Assembly (NCBI GenBank): GCA_964394405.1
Contig: CAYMVY010000001.1
Coordinates: 166,546 to 230,545 of the forward strand
Source of the DNA: an uncultured Gammaproteobacteria bacterium
Lineage (GTDB): Bacteria; Patescibacteriota; Patescibacteriia; Magasanikbacterales; UBA922
DNA: 64,000 bases
Direction: 5' to 3'
Shown piece after piece: positions 3,510-45,351 of the stretch. A program made the position numbers and the translations under genes. Positions within the stretch are counted from its first letter, which is position 1; every line of letters begins with the position of its first letter. Below the pieces are notes generated by a model. It did no database searches, was not told where the DNA came from, and was given only the letters and a program-made list of their open reading frames with translations.

Positions 3510-3619
3510 ACTTTCTCTTAAATCAATCACATACCACCGGCTAAACACCGGTGGTTTTGTTCTACCGCATAACATGATAAAGACAAAGCCAAGATAAAGC
3601 GAGAGTATAGGGAATCAAA

Positions 3620-3679
3620 GGGGGTTCGAGGGTGACAACTGTCTGTCCCGACTCAGTCGGGATTGGTTACAAAAAGTAC
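3620..3679. repeat. 60-nt structured element (gggggttcgagggtgacaactgtc…cccgactcagtcgggattggttacaaaaagtac), copy 1
   Basis: Contains hairpin cccgac-tca-gtcggg; second copy at 18018-18137 shares both halves and carries a 55-nt internal insertion. Confidence 0.55.
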
Positions 3680-3757
3680 GGAAAAGAGTACAGATTTTCC
3701 CCTCTTTTCTTTTAGGATAAACAATGGTACGCTATTTTCATTATCAAAGAAAAAACT

Positions 3758-18017: not shown

Positions 18018-18137
18018 GGGGGGGGGGTTCGGGGATGGAAACTGTCCGAGCTACGAATGTAGAATCACTAACAATACTTAAGAAGGCGAGTTTTTTGACC
18101 CCCGTCCCGACTCAGTCGGGATTGGTTACAAAAAGTA
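18018..18137. repeat. structured element copy 2 (same family as 3620-3679) with 55-nt insertion at 18047-18101
   Basis: Shares ggggttcgRgg…aactgtc and cgtcccgactcagtcgggattggttacaaaaagtac with copy 1. Confidence 0.55.
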
Positions 18138-18159
18138 CAAAATATCTCCACTAAAACAA

Positions 18160-18789: not shown

Positions 18790-19821
18790 TTAAAAAATTT
18801 TCTTCATGGGCAATACTAACACGTCTTCGACATTTTTGCAACCCGTGAAGGCCATGACCAATCGATCGACCCCGAGAGCAATTCCCGAGGATTCTGGCAT
18901 ATGTCGGAGAGCCTCAATAAATTCCTCGTCAATATCATAGACTGGTTTTCCATATTGTTTTCGCTCTTCTTGCTCTCCTACAAATCGCGCTCGCTGCTCG
19001 TCTGCGTCCGTAAGTTCCTCAAATCCATTGGCCAGCTCAATTCCATCTATATACACTTCTACTCTTCGTGCGTATTGCCCGTCTGGTGTGAGACGTGAGA
19101 GGGATGCCATGGGCGCTGGATAGTTATAAATCATAACCAATCCCATATCAACTAATTTTGGCTCAATTTCTTGCAAAAATATTCGATAAAATATTTCTTC
19201 ATATTGCTCAGCATCTTTCACGTCATACCCACGAGCCTTAGCAACGGCAACAAATTCTTCTCGCGTGACTATTGTATCAAGATCAATTGAAACAGTTTGA
19301 AGCCACAGATCTCGCATCGTAATTCGTTTCCATTTTTCTGTAGTAAACCGTTTTGCAAATTTTTCAAACTGAGGATATTGAGTAATCAATCGCTCAGCCG
19401 CAGTTTTGCTCAAATTTTCAATATCGTTCATTAAATCATCGAGTGTTGCACCGACTCGATACCACTCAGCCATCGTAAATTCAGGATGATGCAAATCAGC
19501 CATGCTTTCCTGATTACGAAATACTTTCCCAAGGTAAAATATCTTTTCAAATCCAGCAGCAAGCATTTTTTTCATAGTATATTCGGGTGACGTATGCAAA
19601 TATCCTTGAAACTGCTGTTTCTGGCTATCCTGTATAGAGATAGACATTACATCGATATTCGGCTCTTGTCCGGGATGTCGGACAATAATTGGAGATTCAA
19701 TTTCCAAAAAATGTTCCGACCAAAAAAACTCACGAATACTCCGGAGAATTTCATAGCGCGCAGAAAGAACAATTTTGTGCGCAGAAACATGATAAAGTTG
19801 TTCACCTTTCCCGATAGTCAT
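18790..19821 (-). CDS. epmA: EF-P beta-lysyl ligase (class II LysRS paralog, PoxA/GenX)
   Basis: Class II aaRS core motifs (FRNQE…, GIALGVDRLVM) without anticodon-binding domain; adjacent to efp. Confidence 0.8.
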   Translation of the reverse strand: MTIGKGEQLYHVSAHKIVLSARYEILRSIREFFWSEHFLEIESPIIVRHPGQEPNIDVMSISIQDSQKQQFQGYLHTSPEYTMKKMLAAGFEKIFYLGKVFRNQESMADLHHPEFTMAEWYRVGATLDDLMNDIENLSKTAAERLITQYPQFEKFAKRFTTEKWKRITMRDLWLQTVSIDLDTIVTREEFVAVAKARGYDVKDAEQYEEIFYRIFLQEIEPKLVDMGLVMIYNYPAPMASLSRLTPDGQYARRVEVYIDGIELANGFEELTDADEQRARFVGEQEERKQYGKPVYDIDEEFIEALRHMPESSGIALGVDRLVMAFTGCKNVEDVLVLPMKKIF

Positions 19822-19942
19822 AATAGTCGGGAGAATATAAGAAAAAAGGCTCTATGTCAATCTAGCATGTGTCCCACTTGAGCTTCTTGACTTTTATTAG
19901 CATCATTGTTATACTTGTCTTCGTTATTTTGTCCCAACTATG

Positions 19943-19995
19943 GGCCAGTAACCTGGCTGGTTAGAGCGATCCGATGTACATCGGATAGGTAGGGT
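19943..19995 (+). pseudogene. truncated tRNA-Ala-like copy (acceptor 5' half, D region, anticodon arm, variable region; T-arm replaced by GIY-YIG start)
   Basis: gggccagta-acctggctggttagagcg-atccgatgtacatcggat-aggtagggt parallels the tRNA-Ala at 20256 (gggccagta-gctcacctggtagagcg-…-aggtaggggg). Confidence 0.45.
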
Positions 19996-19998
19996 TTT

Positions 19999-20265
19999 AT
20001 GAAAGGATATCTCTACATTCTCCAGAGTAACAAAAACGGTCGATATTATATTGGAAGCACGAATAATCCAGATCGACGTTTAGAAGAACACAACGGAAAA
20101 CTCGTCACAACCACACAATATCTTGTGCCACTTAAAATGGTATTTTGCAAAGAATACCAAGAACTAAGCGAGGCACGAAATATTGAACGAAAATTAAAAA
20201 GACAAAAAAGTAGGATCTTGATAGAAAAGATAATAAAAGATCAAAATATATTCATGGGCCAGTAG
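19999..20265 (+). CDS. GIY-YIG domain protein (UPF0213-like), copy 1
   Basis: GYLYILQS…GRYYIGSTNNPDRRLEEHN = GIY-YIG motif; stop codon overlaps first 10 nt of tRNA-Ala. Confidence 0.7.
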   Translation: MKGYLYILQSNKNGRYYIGSTNNPDRRLEEHNGKLVTTTQYLVPLKMVFCKEYQELSEARNIERKLKRQKSRILIEKIIKDQNIFMGQ

Positions 20266-20331
20266 CTCACCTGGTAGAGCGCCTCGTTTGCACCGAGGAG
20301 GTAGGGGGTTCGAGTCCTCTCTGGTCCACCA
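20256..20331 (+). tRNA. tRNA-Ala(UGC) with encoded CCA
   Basis: Cloverleaf with G3:U70 identity pair, anticodon loop uuUGCac, T-loop GGTTCGAGT, 3' CCA. Confidence 0.85.
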
Positions 20332-20394
20332 GGCTTCATCCTGATTACATCAGGATTTCGCCCGGCAAGCCGTTTACATAACTTTGGAGGGAGT

Positions 20395-20679
20395 ATGTAC
20401 TACGTTTACATTTTATTGTGTAGTGATCGTACTTACTACACCGGGTATACAACTAACCTTAAGCGGAGGTTACAGGAACATGAACTGGGTCAAAATGAAA
20501 GTACGAAATACAAAAGACCGGTTCGACTCGTCTTTTTTTGTTCTTTTTCAAACATGGACAAAGCAATCCAGTTTGAAAAATATTTAAAAACAAATTCAGG
20601 ACGGGCATTTAGAAACAAACATCTGATAAATAATTCGTTATCCGAGCCTGCTCGGCGTAGCGAAGCGAAGCCGAGGTAG
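20395..20679 (+). CDS. GIY-YIG domain protein (UPF0213-like), copy 2
   Basis: MYYVYILLCSDRTYYTGYTTNLKRRLQEHE; C-terminal 10 nt overlap the tRNA-Phe 5' end. Confidence 0.65.
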   Translation: MYYVYILLCSDRTYYTGYTTNLKRRLQEHELGQNESTKYKRPVRLVFFCSFSNMDKAIQFEKYLKTNSGRAFRNKHLINNSLSEPARRSEAKPR

Positions 20680-20741
20680 CTCAGTGGTAGAGCAGAGGCC
20701 TGAAGAGCCTTGTGTCGCCAGTTCGATCCTGGCTCTCGGCA
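20670..20741 (+). tRNA. tRNA-Phe(GAA)
   Basis: gccgagg acceptor, anticodon stem gaggc/gcctt with loop cuGAAga, T-arm gccag-ttcgatc-ctggc; close to bacterial tRNA-Phe consensus. Confidence 0.8.
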
Positions 20742-20759
20742 CGGGTAAAATCGAACAAT

Positions 20760-20836
20760 CGGAGTGTAGCTCAGTTGGCTAGAGCATCTGGTTTGGGACC
20801 AGAGGGTCGAAGGTTCAAGTCCTTTCACTCCGACCA
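20760..20836 (+). tRNA. tRNA-Pro(UGG) with encoded CCA
   Basis: C1:G72 start typical of tRNA-Pro, anticodon loop uuUGGga, 3' CCA. Confidence 0.8.
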
Positions 20837-20845
20837 AAAACACAA

Positions 20846-20876
20846 AACCCTGTACCATTTCGGTGCAGGGTTTTTG
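20846..20876 (+). terminator. terminator (accctgtaccatttcggtgcagggt + T5) ending the plus-strand tRNA set
   Basis: 8-bp stem plus TTTTT. Confidence 0.65.
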
Positions 20877-20965
20877 CGTTGGCCATACAGTAGGGGACTT
20901 TTGTAATCCCATGTGTATGAGTAATATGTTGCCATATCACTCGTGAACTGTCAAACAGTTCACTG

Positions 20966-21039
20966 AGCGGTAAACCAGATTCGAACTGGCGACCTTCTCC
21001 TTGGCAAGGAGACGCTCTAACCAACTGAGCTACTACCGC
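20966..21039 (-). tRNA. tRNA-Gly(GCC)
   Basis: Reverse complement gcggtagtagctcagttggttagagcg-tctcc-ttGCCaa-ggaga…gccag-ttcgaat-ctggt-ttaccgc. Confidence 0.8.
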
Positions 21040-21122
21040 ACGTCTTCGCTACACTACACCATGCACACACCTTTGAGGTGAGCATGCTCGGCATAGTCCT
21101 CCGAAGGAGGGCGAAGTCTGAG

Positions 21123-21196
21123 TTGCGGGGGAGGGATTTGAACCCCCGACCTTCGGGTTATGGGCCCGACGAGCTGCCTGGCTGCTCTACCCCGCG
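21123..21196 (-). tRNA. initiator tRNA-fMet(CAU)
   Basis: Near-identical to E. coli tRNA-fMet: C1·A72 mismatch, three G:C pairs in anticodon stem, loop cCATaa. Confidence 0.85.
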
Positions 21197-21231
21197 ATAT
21201 ACTGAAACTATGTTAGTGGAAACTATTCCCG

Positions 21232-21303
21232 AGCGGGTAGCGGGAGTCGAACCCGCGTCATCAGTTTGGAAAACTGAGATAATAGCCGTTATACGATACC
21301 CGC
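21232..21303 (-). tRNA. tRNA-Gly(UCC)
   Basis: Reverse complement gcgggtatcgtataacggctattatctcagttTTCCaaactgatgacgcgggttcgactcccgctacccgct closely matches E. coli glyT. Confidence 0.85.
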
Positions 21304-21384
21304 GTACCATAAGTAGGACCATAATACGTGATTTTCAACGTATTGTCAATTATTAAGCACAATAGAACACGACGCAACAAGAGA

Positions 21385-21414
21385 TTGACAGTACGACGAG
21401 AGTAGTGCTAGTAT
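21385..21414 (+). promoter_or_regulatory. sigma-70-like promoter TTGACA-18-TAGTAT for the downstream plus-strand gene
   Basis: Consensus -35 hexamer and near-consensus -10 read directly. Confidence 0.4.
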
Positions 21415-21566
21415 CTATATACTATGAATTATAGAAATCAGCACTCACACACCATGATGATGCGCATGACTCTTTCTTGCGAAGGCTGATATTGTATTTA
21501 GAATCAACATCTGGCCCTCGCTACCCGAGGGTCATTTTATTTTTAAGACTGTATCGAATCACCCAT

Positions 21567-22340
21567 ATGTTTGTCACTATAATCAACGACTGCCGAGATG
21601 CAAACGCATTTGGAAGACAAGTAACACGAGTAGTAGCGCTCCTGTCATGCCCTGTATCAACCGTGGGCGTACAGAGTGATATTGAAGCTTCGGGGATGCT
21701 TGTGGATATACTTGACGCGTCACTAGGAAAAAAAGGAGTGATACTAGTAAATGTCGCGCCTCGTGAAAAAACAAAAAATAAATGGGAAAACGGCACCCCT
21801 TTTGGATATTTTTCTGTAGGAAATACAATTGTATGTTCTTCAATTGCCGGAGAAACACTACGTTTGGTTTATGAACTAGGTATCACCAATTCAATAGAGG
21901 TATTCGATATCCCAAAAGTGATGAAAAGCGCACAAAAACAAGGACTCGCCACAAAAAAAGAAGTGGAACATATTATTCATACACAATTTAGAAGTTATGA
22001 ATTCTTGCCACGCATTGCTTCATGGGTCACACAAGGATATTCATTCCCCACTCGCACTCTTAATCTAAAAAAACAATTCTCTTCTAAGCAACCAAAAGTA
22101 TGGTGGGTTGATTGTTTTGGAAATTGCAAAACTACGATTATCTCTTCAAAAACAAATGGTAAAATAAAAACAAAATTCGGAACATTTCCTCTCTTCAATC
22201 GATTAACCGATGTGCCAGACCACACCATTGCCTATGTGAAAGGAAGTTCAGGATACGGAGAAAAAAGATTTATAGAAATTGTGGTACAGGGCGATAGTGC
22301 TGCAAGAAAGCTAAAAATTGAATCTGGCAATCTACTCTAG
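21567..22340 (+). CDS. SAM hydroxide adenosyltransferase / SAM hydrolase family (DUF62) protein
   Basis: C-terminal VWWVDCFGNCKTTI…GSSGYGEKRFIEIVVQGDSAARKLKIESG matches the DUF62 C-terminal beta domain; start moved to Met at 21567. Confidence 0.45.
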   Translation: MFVTIINDCRDANAFGRQVTRVVALLSCPVSTVGVQSDIEASGMLVDILDASLGKKGVILVNVAPREKTKNKWENGTPFGYFSVGNTIVCSSIAGETLRLVYELGITNSIEVFDIPKVMKSAQKQGLATKKEVEHIIHTQFRSYEFLPRIASWVTQGYSFPTRTLNLKKQFSSKQPKVWWVDCFGNCKTTIISSKTNGKIKTKFGTFPLFNRLTDVPDHTIAYVKGSSGYGEKRFIEIVVQGDSAARKLKIESGNLL

Positions 22341-34600: not shown

Positions 34601-34671
<71 letters not shown>

Positions 34672-34695
34672 CTAATACATTATCTTAAAAATGTA

Positions 34696-34752
34696 AGACA
34701 GAGGTCTGCAACCCCGCACCGTTCGGATGCAGGGCGATTCCCATCGGTACCT
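34696..34752 (+). pseudogene. partial duplicate of tRNA-Cys 3' portion (agaggtctgcaa…attcccatcggtacctc) with replaced middle
   Basis: 12 nt of anticodon region and last 17 nt identical to the tRNA 25 nt upstream; no acceptor 5' half or D-arm. Confidence 0.45.
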
Positions 34753-34761
34753 CAAAATAAA

Positions 34762-44826: not shown

Positions 44827-45230
44827 GTGCAATCCTTGGTAAGGGTGGGGAGAATGAACTGTGTACAACATAGCATAAAGAATAAAAAAAATAAAGGCAC
44901 AACATAAAATATTGTACGACGTTAAAAATTATTAATATTAAGCTATTTTATTACTGTTTTATAAAAAATGTTAGAAAATGGGTAAGATCTTCTCTCTATT
45001 ATTTTAATAAATACTATCCCCGCTCATTTGATTCTGATTTCTAATACAGAAAACAAACACGGACTGTAAATCCGTGTTTAGTAAAGAGTCTGTGTTTGTT
45101 TTTCCCGACAGGAACCAATCTACATCCTTCGATGGACAGATAGAACCTTATGTATTGTGCCCCCCCCACCGCGAATCGAACGCGGATCTAGACGTGATTG
45201 AGTGTCTTGTTCCCCGCCTGCCATCGCCTG

Positions 45231-45302
45231 TACCCTCGACAGGAATCGAACCTGTATCTAGACGTTAGGAGTGTCTTGTTCTATCCATTGAACTACGAGA
45301 GC
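45231..45302 (-). tRNA. tRNA-Arg(CCU), argW-like
   Basis: Reverse complement gctctcg-ta-gttcaatggatagaac-a-agaca-cuCCUaa-cgtct-agata-caggttcgattcctg-tcgagggt-a parallels E. coli argW; two G·U pairs in acceptor and A·C at 31-39 lower confidence. Confidence 0.55.
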
Positions 45303-45351
45303 ATAGGCCATGGCGGGCAGGTAACCATTGAACTATGGGAGCTTGTTAATT

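Follow-up and report, generated by a model that had tools for sequence, protein, structure and literature searches.

We identify two small genes of the GIY-YIG nuclease family set among tRNA genes in a 64,000-nucleotide (nt) stretch of DNA, here called the window, from an uncultured bacterium deposited as a member of the Gammaproteobacteria and placed by GTDB in the Patescibacteriota (order Magasanikbacterales, UBA922; assembly GCA_964394405.1, contig CAYMVY010000001.1, positions 166,546 to 230,545, forward strand). We propose, with a probability of roughly 0.6, that both open reading frames (ORFs) are copies of a selfish, homing-like mini-element of about 0.35 kb that sits in or against tRNA genes and recombines through tRNA homology. 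Our comparisons demonstrate that one copy is inserted within a tRNA gene and accompanied by a partial duplicate of that tRNA, that a palindromic hairpin (HP) within the duplicate is conserved, that the genes are present in some close relatives and absent from others, and that the GIY-YIG motif residues are conserved. From sequence and modelling we infer that the protein is an active nuclease, and HP, as a cruciform or as a hairpin, is probably its cis-site.

Copy 1 lies within a tRNA-Ala gene

Both ORFs match Pfam GIY-YIG models and both run into a tRNA gene. Copy 1 (19999..20265, + strand) encodes 88 amino acids (aa), and its TAG stop codon is made of positions 8-10 of an intact tRNA-Ala(TGC) (20256..20331, +); copy 2 (20395..20679, +) encodes 94 aa and stops in the same manner at positions 8-10 of an intact tRNA-Phe(GAA) (20670..20742, +). 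The original prediction, of two 88- and 94-aa GIY-YIG ORFs overlapping tRNA 5' ends, is borne out: each overlap is exactly 10 nt, in the same phase, so that the stop is the tRNA's own U8-A9-G10. The two proteins share 34% identity, and no other GIY-YIG ORF occurs in the 64-kb window.

Immediately upstream of copy 1 lies a fragment of tRNA-Ala with three parts. Its 5' segment (19942..19968, +) copies tRNA-Ala positions 1-26, the acceptor 5' strand and the D arm, with 5 mismatches and 1 indel. HP follows (19969..19986, +), an 18-nt perfect palindrome, ATCCGATGTACATCGGAT, that belongs to the family NYCCGRY..RYCGGRN and replaces the 17-nt anticodon arm. The last segment, AGGTAGGG (19987..19994, +), is identical to the tRNA-Ala variable region and the beginning of the T stem; it lies 4 nt 5' of the copy 1 start codon and, judging from its sequence, could serve as the Shine-Dalgarno sequence of this ORF. 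A truncated tRNA-Ala copy had been predicted at this place and is real, though it starts at 19942 and not at 19943, and what had been taken for a diverged anticodon-like arm is the perfect palindrome of a conserved hairpin family. Against tRNA-Ala positions 1-51 the fragment gives a 53-column local alignment with z = 8.75, a score equalled by 0 of 1000 shuffles, and a repeat of the test gave z = 9.1. Under harsher local scoring (+2/-3) the match is weak, with 26 of 2000 shuffles as good; blastn-short did not detect the fragment, and the Rfam tRNA model made no call on it at E<=1. The similarity is settled by the gentler scoring together with the match across the whole register.

Comparison with relatives places the fragment where the original gene stood. 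Four syntenic loci (L082-L085), retrieved through the neighbouring EpmA gene (78-85% protein identity), hold the same six tRNAs as the window, with tRNA-Ala and tRNA-Phe 100% identical to the window's. In L083, L084 and L085 a promoter, TTGACT-17-TATACT, leads straight to tRNA-Ala about 23 nt on. The window has the same promoter (19887..19915, +; sigma-70-like, TG-extended, 10/12 matches), followed by the three-part fragment, copy 1 and then tRNA-Ala. Outside the anticodon arm and up to the end of AGGTAGGG, the fragment matches the real tRNA-Ala of the relatives column by column, and its distance from the promoter is the same as theirs. Its 5' part thus stands where the tRNA originally began, which places the element within the gene, with the full tRNA restored after the ORF. 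The promoter appears from its sequence to be that of the tRNA-Ala operon, and would now drive the pseudo-tRNA, copy 1 and tRNA-Ala. The three empty sites in L083, L084 and L085 support the earlier proposal that a GIY-YIG unit had inserted into, or duplicated, a tRNA gene. L082 has a remnant without an ORF at the copy 1 site.

No GIY-YIG ORF is found in the tRNA cluster of L082, L084 or L085, and L083 has copy 2 only. Copy 2 is thus shared by the window and L083 and missing from the other three, yet the nearest relative of L083 is L084 (87% EpmA DNA identity). The DNA of the copy 2 element is 93.2% identical in the window and L083, compared with 78.7% for EpmA, 81.3% for EF-P and 85.8% for the Na/H exchanger; the selfish, homing-like reading raised in the original prediction draws support from this patchy distribution and from the lower divergence of the element than of host genes. 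The leader of copy 2 (20332..20394, +) begins directly after the CCA of tRNA-Ala and contains a GGAGG Shine-Dalgarno sequence and a variant of the hairpin, ATCCTGATTACATCAGGAT (20338..20356, +), in which a compensatory change separates the window from L083. Ten codons of copy 2 differ synonymously and 4 non-synonymously between the two genomes, and a ratio of non-synonymous to synonymous substitution rates (dN/dS) of ~0.12, by rough calculation, indicates that the gene is under purifying selection. In the alleles filled by copy 2 a spacer of 92 nt is wholly replaced, and the 3' end of tRNA-Ala reads CCACCA in the window and L083 and CCACAAG in 2 of the 3 alleles without copy 2; the replaced spacer and this contrast are consistent with crossovers inside the flanking tRNAs. 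A metagenome scan with the window promoter, aimed at filled and empty alleles of the same species, returned 0 matches. Two further hairpins lie in these clusters: L085 has a pseudo-tRNA-Phe with hairpin and without ORF, and L083 a lone hairpin segment 3' of tRNA-Phe.

The hairpin, the protein and their distribution

A scan of species-representative genomes yielded 80 loci, from which 79 ORFs were counted, in Patescibacteria, Omnitrophota, Bacteroidota, Ignavibacteria, Chloroflexota, KSB1 and other groups. A same-strand tRNA lies <=120 nt away from 67 of the 79 homolog ORFs, against 48 of 416 (11.5%) control ORFs from the same loci; among the 12 ORFs without a tRNA neighbour, 2 hold a tRNA inside an extended ORF call and 6 more are <160 nt from a contig end. 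ORFs with a downstream tRNA overlap it by exactly 10 nt in 18 loci, every one with a TAG stop, and are otherwise separated from it by a gap of ~0-13 nt. Where the tRNA lies upstream, its end falls 0-60 nt before the start codon, and at hairpin-type loci the start codon is 0-3 nt past the tRNA 3' end. Most tests also found a partial copy of the adjacent tRNA on the opposite flank of the ORF (z>5 in ~43 of 68). The adjacency to tRNA genes, proposed from the window alone, is therefore the rule among relatives, as is the partial duplicate. Many tRNA isotypes are used, and the protein tree groups by isotype; the sister proteins of L020 and L025 share tRNA-Val(GAC) in opposite arrangements. Paralogs accumulate within a single operon at some loci, and L046 contains a tandem unit, a recent duplicate with identical ORF copies.

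Beside Ala, Val, Asp, Pro, Gly, Lys, Thr and Ile tRNAs alike, the partial copy is often a close match to its neighbour both 5' and 3' of the anticodon arm, with the 17-nt arm itself swapped for a palindrome such as TCCCGATGTACATCGGGA. The HP motif (NYCCGRY..RYCGGRN) occurs <=120 nt upstream of the ORF at 43 of 79 loci and <=150 nt downstream at 26 of 79, over a background of 0.14 per kb. An unbiased hairpin scan recovered the same family, with 3 of 237 control segments positive. Aligning 22 hairpins showed pairing in all 172 stem cells and changes on both sides in 6 of 8 pairs, which 0 of 500 shuffles matched; the CCG/CGG core is almost invariant. Such covariation is expected of any palindrome, whether it works as RNA, in cruciform DNA or by binding a dimeric protein, and so it demonstrates constraint and not the type of molecule. 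HP is restricted largely to one protein clade, of which copy 1 is a member. The real tRNA-Ala(GGC) of L088 has an anticodon arm, TCCCGATGGCATCGGGA, that equals the hairpin minus one nucleotide, and we infer from this resemblance that HP probably descends from an Ala(GGC) anticodon arm and was then carried with the element to other isotypes. HP cannot have arisen by mere decay of a tRNA duplicate, because it is conserved across phyla and isotypes.

The association also holds in reverse. Metagenome contigs were searched for the hairpin in its D-arm/variable-loop setting, without use of the protein; at least 120 stretches were found, and the 91 sites in the 80 loci returned were analysed. A same-strand GIY-YIG ORF lies <=450 nt away at 42 of the 91 sites, and 22 more sites are <=350 nt from a contig end. 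These loci repeat the arrangements of the survey, including tandem arrays of hairpin pseudo-tRNAs (L146, as in L013 of the survey).

Both proteins match Pfam GIY-YIG (PF01541) well above its cut-off of 22.6 bits, copy 1 with 54.6 bits (E 1.4e-14) and copy 2 with 63.0 bits (E 3.3e-17), and the only Pfam families matched by either ORF are GIY-YIG, T5orf172 and MUG113, with no HUH (Y1) transposase among them. In a 26-sequence alignment that includes both window copies, Y6, Y16/Y17, G19, R27, H31 and E63 are invariant; the catalytic motif residues of the GIY-YIG superfamily (GIY Tyr, YIG Tyr, Arg, His and the metal-binding Glu) are all present. The AlphaFold2 (AF2) model, with a predicted local distance difference test (pLDDT) of 92, is a single domain with no second domain. 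The nearest sequence matches with structures are UPF0213 proteins (1zg2, E = 1.5e-12; 1ywl, 2.5e-10), followed by SLX1 (2e-5), and structure comparison gives a template-modelling (TM) score of 0.6-0.7 to the Slx1 nuclease domain and only ~0.45 to I-TevI, with UvrC also more distant. On these matches and this model, both ORFs appear to belong to the UPF0213/Slx1-like (URI) branch of GIY-YIG nucleases and are predicted nucleases. The NCBIfam model for group I intron endonucleases covers just residues 2-34 and scores 21 bits, below its cut-off of 56, and PADLOC, PHROGs and NCBIfam yielded no specific family for these proteins. The family is large: a scan of 1.84 billion cluster representatives returned 3,898 proteins (50%-identity clusters) at E<=1e-10, and the best 150 matches listed are mostly 85-130 aa long. 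An identical copy 1 protein occurs in the sample SRR12404947. Most named homologs of the copy 1 protein come from Patescibacteria, and a search of viral contigs for relatives of the family found none.

Several other arrangements were seen at these loci. In a hairpin-less clade from Bacteroidota and relatives (L065, L073, L048 and L077) the ORF follows tRNA-Phe or tRNA-Asn and is flanked by direct repeats made of the tRNA 3' end (~16-31 nt) and the tRNA terminator hairpin; ~45 nt of small hairpins split the downstream T-loop in L065 and L073. Full-length hairpin pseudo-tRNAs in L020, L092, L100, L107, L113, L123 and L132 are reported by ARAGORN as 'tRNA-???' with 4-nt anticodons and have an 8-nt loop, AUGNNCAU. 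All except that of L132 immediately precede a real tRNA-Val(GAC), after which comes a GIY-YIG ORF; the L132 copy is downstream of tRNA-Ile and tRNA-Val(TAC). In L125, L159 and L106, and probably in L115, L144 and L138, a real tRNA-Val lies in the D-loop of a complete hairpin-bearing pseudo-tRNA, with no ORF; on these metagenome contigs the nested tRNA-Val is bracketed by inverted repeats, CTTGCCCC..CCAC and GTGG..GGGGTGAAG. Many GIY-YIG and hairpin sites in the survey and metagenome loci lie a few hundred bases from contig ends, which suggests that repeats at these sites break short-read assemblies.

The window itself contains two further pseudo-tRNAs, neither with a GIY-YIG ORF. Its tRNA-Arg(CCT) (45230-45302, -) is nested within a pseudo-tRNA-Arg (45161-45342) whose 5' part spans 45342-45322 and whose positions 22-70 lie at ~45212-45161, with an inverted repeat around the real tRNA; the pseudo-tRNA has a 1-nt insertion in the anticodon loop and compensatory changes in the T stem (z = 15). 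A 5'-truncated pseudo-tRNA-Cys (34693-34753, +) begins 20 nt after tRNA-Cys (34601-34672) and comprises tRNA positions 18-72 (z = 14.8), with an altered variable/T region and a terminator after it.

Mechanism and alternatives

We propose that the element has two parts. The first would be a single-domain Slx1/UPF0213-like ORF that abuts a tRNA and is expressed from the promoter of that tRNA; the second would be a tRNA-derived segment, a putative tRNA mimic, whose anticodon arm is replaced by the palindromic HP. We take HP as the putative cis-site because the fold is Slx1-like and the hairpin occurs together with the protein. Homology between tRNAs would let the element recombine into a cognate tRNA gene: a crossover 5' of the difference between HP and the anticodon would leave a pseudo-tRNA (5' part and HP), the ORF and an intact tRNA, the order seen at copy 1, and a crossover 3' of it would leave an intact tRNA, the ORF and a pseudo-tRNA (HP and 3' part). 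With either crossover one working tRNA would always be retained. As tRNA sequences are conserved between genomes, the element could pass between lineages in a homing-like manner; it would capture a strong tRNA promoter and may decay into remnants without the ORF. Such recombination would account for the fixed junctions, the isotype-specific protein clades and the opposite arrangements of sister proteins, and also for the tandem arrays and ORF-less derivatives. When the tRNA lies downstream, RNase P cleavage would remove the stop codon of the ORF; when a hairpin-type ORF starts 0-3 nt past an upstream tRNA, 3' processing would leave a near-leaderless mRNA.

A number of considerations weigh against this proposal. 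Its steps of cleavage, binding and transfer are predicted. An 88-aa protein that has no separate DNA-binding domain leaves any target specificity unexplained. Copy 2 exceeds the Na/H exchanger in similarity only modestly (93 vs 86%), and copy 1 looks old, given its decayed fragment and the L082 remnant at the same site, and may have lost its mobility. Hairpin pseudo-tRNAs without an ORF make up ~27 of the 91 sites of the reciprocal search, most of them directly beside a real tRNA, and the pseudo-tRNA-Cys and -Arg of the window show that partial tRNA duplication occurs also where there is no GIY-YIG gene alongside. Lastly, the sequence on either side of HP often remains the same as in the adjacent tRNA, although ORFs from different loci have diverged by ~50%; the pattern might reflect youth, gene conversion or selection.

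The rival that survives best, which we regard as unlikely, is a nuclease that serves its host, with a housekeeping or beneficial task at tRNA loci (for example, resolving DNA structures where tRNA genes are heavily transcribed, or processing tRNA precursors), a place in tRNA operons that secures co-expression, and pseudo-tRNAs as by-products. A fold of the structure-specific nuclease type would suit such a task, as would the location of the ORFs on the tRNA strand with predicted co-transcription, the conserved motif residues, the apparent purifying selection on copy 2 (from the rough calculation above) and the very large size of the family across many phyla. It is hard to reconcile with close relatives that have 100% identical tRNAs and do without one or both genes, with a variable tRNA isotype and paralogs piled up in one operon, or with ORF-less remnants and tandem arrays, which are typical of selfish DNA. 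A role as a tRNA-processing accessory, the alternative offered in the original prediction, is unsupported because the genes are gained and lost between close relatives with identical tRNAs.

Integrase-driven islands classically leave partial tRNA repeats, and the partial tRNAs described here might be scars of such islands or of general recombination, with GIY-YIG ORFs accumulating in permissive spacers and playing no causal part. The window's pseudo-tRNA-Cys and -Arg, which lack GIY-YIG genes, would fit that history, and so would the common occurrence of HP pseudo-tRNAs without an ORF. We consider it improbable, since the repeats around the GIY-YIG gene enclose only ~0.3 kb with a single 88-aa ORF and no integrase, HP goes together with one protein clade, the ends of the ORFs fall at fixed tRNA positions (the 10-nt overlap, or 0-3 nt past the tRNA 3' end at hairpin-type loci with the tRNA upstream) and the family was not found in viral contigs.

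We give similarly little credence to the idea that the HP pseudo-tRNA is itself the functional product, whether as a decoy, as a regulator of the ORF or of the tRNA, as a tRNA whose anticodon loop has 8 nt or as an RNA that partners the nuclease, with the ORF as its accessory. Most copies, the window's included, have no T arm or acceptor strand, so that a tRNA fold is impossible, and HP may stand on either side of the ORF, depending on the arrangement. The strong conservation and covariation of HP, which would favour an RNA, are expected equally of a palindrome acting as a DNA site. Other observations on the side of an RNA product are that full-length versions are called as tRNAs by ARAGORN, with 4-nt anticodons (L020, L092, L100, L107, L113, L123), that HP equals the tRNA-Ala(GGC) anticodon arm of L088 plus one nucleotide, and that a real tRNA is nested in a complete pseudo-tRNA at some loci. 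The 5' region of copy 1 in the window folds as RNA no better than shuffles (z = -0.84), which limits claims about RNA structure to HP itself.

Other candidates were set aside. A group I intron is ruled out: there is no ribozyme, no intron family matches 19700-21600 at E<=1, the tRNA is intact and the insert measures ~0.3 kb. Cutting of the normal anticodon arm by the nuclease is unlikely, as the intact tRNA copy alongside would be cut as well, and ends-in gap repair from a break at HP was set aside because it would erase HP.

The selfish mini-element that we favour may also be read in a stronger form, which we regard as possible though doubtful: these could be the smallest autonomous mobile elements so far known from bacteria, ~350 bp long, in which an 88-aa structure-specific nuclease acts on its own conserved hairpin, set within a tRNA mimic, and the target is set by the DNA homology of tRNA genes. 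Homing of this kind could be 'homology-programmed', with retargeting by a swap of tRNA-like arms and no protein-DNA recognition. Guidance of the nuclease by a pseudo-tRNA transcript is very unlikely given the small size of the protein.

Genomic context, known systems and significance

The six tRNAs of the cluster are called concordantly by ARAGORN and Rfam (57-69 bits), and the predicted layout, with Ala, Phe and Pro on the + strand and Gly, fMet and Gly on the - strand, is confirmed. The + strand operon ends with tRNA-Pro(TGG) (20760..20836), after which a terminator-like hairpin, CCCTGTACC-ATTT-CGGTGCAGGG followed by TTTTT (20848..20875, +), was recognised by eye; a terminator scanner made no call there. 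The divergent operon (20965..21303, -) has its own promoter at 21349-21321 and contains tRNA-Gly(GCC) (20965..21039), tRNA-Met(CAT) (21122..21196) and tRNA-Gly(TCC) (21231..21303); it has no GIY-YIG element and serves here as context only. The mismatched 1-72 pair and three G-C pairs in the anticodon stem of tRNA-Met are initiator features. Relative to EpmA and the Na/H exchanger, the six-tRNA cluster as a whole has the opposite orientation in L083-L085 to that in the window and L082. Beside the cluster, window positions 21477-22340 (+) hold an ORF of 257-287 aa with no Pfam match; the interval between exchanger and EpmA is only ~1 kb in L084 and L085, leaving no room for it, and by this comparison the ORF appears to be a further insertion or deletion beside the tRNA cluster. 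Elsewhere in the window, whose G+C content is 41.6%, two intergenic copies (3619-3680 and 18020-18140, +) have a 5' GGGGGTTCG motif in common, as well as a 3' block, GTCCCGACTCAGTCGGGATTGGTTACAAAAAGTAC, that is nearly identical; they match no Rfam family at E<=1 and may be an unannotated RNA or repeat.

The element behaves like a free-standing homing gene and like a tRNA-targeting integrative element, yet it lacks defining features of both. SegB of phage T4 is a free-standing GIY-YIG homing endonuclease gene in the T4 tRNA gene cluster and has been linked to segmental amplification of its own locus (PMC2330249; PMC13096335). With SegB-type genes the present genes share a GIY-YIG catalytic domain, the position of a putatively selfish gene between tRNA genes, a patchy distribution among relatives and a proposed spread by recombination with conserved flanking sequence; as with Seg and I-TevI-type genes, the element is present or absent at a conserved site in close relatives and is less diverged than its host. 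They differ from Seg genes in being chromosomal in bacteria and not found in viral contigs, and in having a conserved hairpin and a partial tRNA duplicate, neither of which is described for Seg genes. Homing endonucleases such as I-TevI join a catalytic domain to a separate DNA-binding domain; unlike these, the proteins studied here consist of a catalytic domain only, in 85-95 aa, and in sequence and fold they are nearer to UPF0213 and Slx1 than to I-TevI.

UPF0213 (BH0048, PDB 1zg2; EF2693, PDB 1ywl) provides, with the Slx1 domain, the best match in sequence and fold and has the same motif residues, at an identity of only ~31-35%; the literature searched turned up no link of UPF0213 to tRNA genes or mobility. 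The substrates of Slx1 are branched and stem-loop DNA, in keeping with a hairpin cis-site, but Slx1 proper has a C-terminal zinc-finger/RING domain and a partner, Slx4, both of which are absent here. Prophages, genomic islands and other integrative elements that target tRNA genes likewise insert into the gene, keep an intact tRNA and are flanked by partial tRNA direct repeats. These are kilobases long and use a tyrosine or serine integrase, whereas here the unit is ~0.35 kb and encodes a predicted nuclease: the sole ORF between the tRNA repeats is the GIY-YIG gene. In the present elements, moreover, the duplicate may represent the 5' two-thirds of the tRNA or else its 3' part, and the anticodon arm of the duplicate is specifically replaced. 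REP/RAYT and IS200/IS605 systems resemble the element in pairing a small nuclease-type gene with conserved flanking palindromic hairpins and in producing ORF-less hairpin copies, which in those systems outnumber the gene-bearing ones; they employ HUH single-strand transposases in place of a GIY-YIG protein, and their hairpins are scattered genome-wide and not set within tRNA mimics. Within the literature searched, whose coverage was incomplete, we found no description of tRNA-embedded small GIY-YIG genes or hairpin pseudo-tRNAs, and novelty is accordingly provisional.

Our proposal would explain why genes annotated as 'GIY-YIG nuclease family protein' and partial or 'tRNA-???' calls cluster at tRNA genes, and why assemblies tend to break there. 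It would also supply a testable function for the long-uncharacterised UPF0213/Slx1-like nucleases of bacteria. If the hairpin is the nuclease site and tRNA homology sets the target, the element would be a minimal recombination-based insertion system, whose parts (an 88-aa protein, an 18-nt hairpin and arms of ~25 nt) are small enough for direct test and re-engineering. Collectively, these genes would define a very common and overlooked class of selfish DNA, comprising thousands of protein clusters and especially frequent in the tiny genomes of Patescibacteria.

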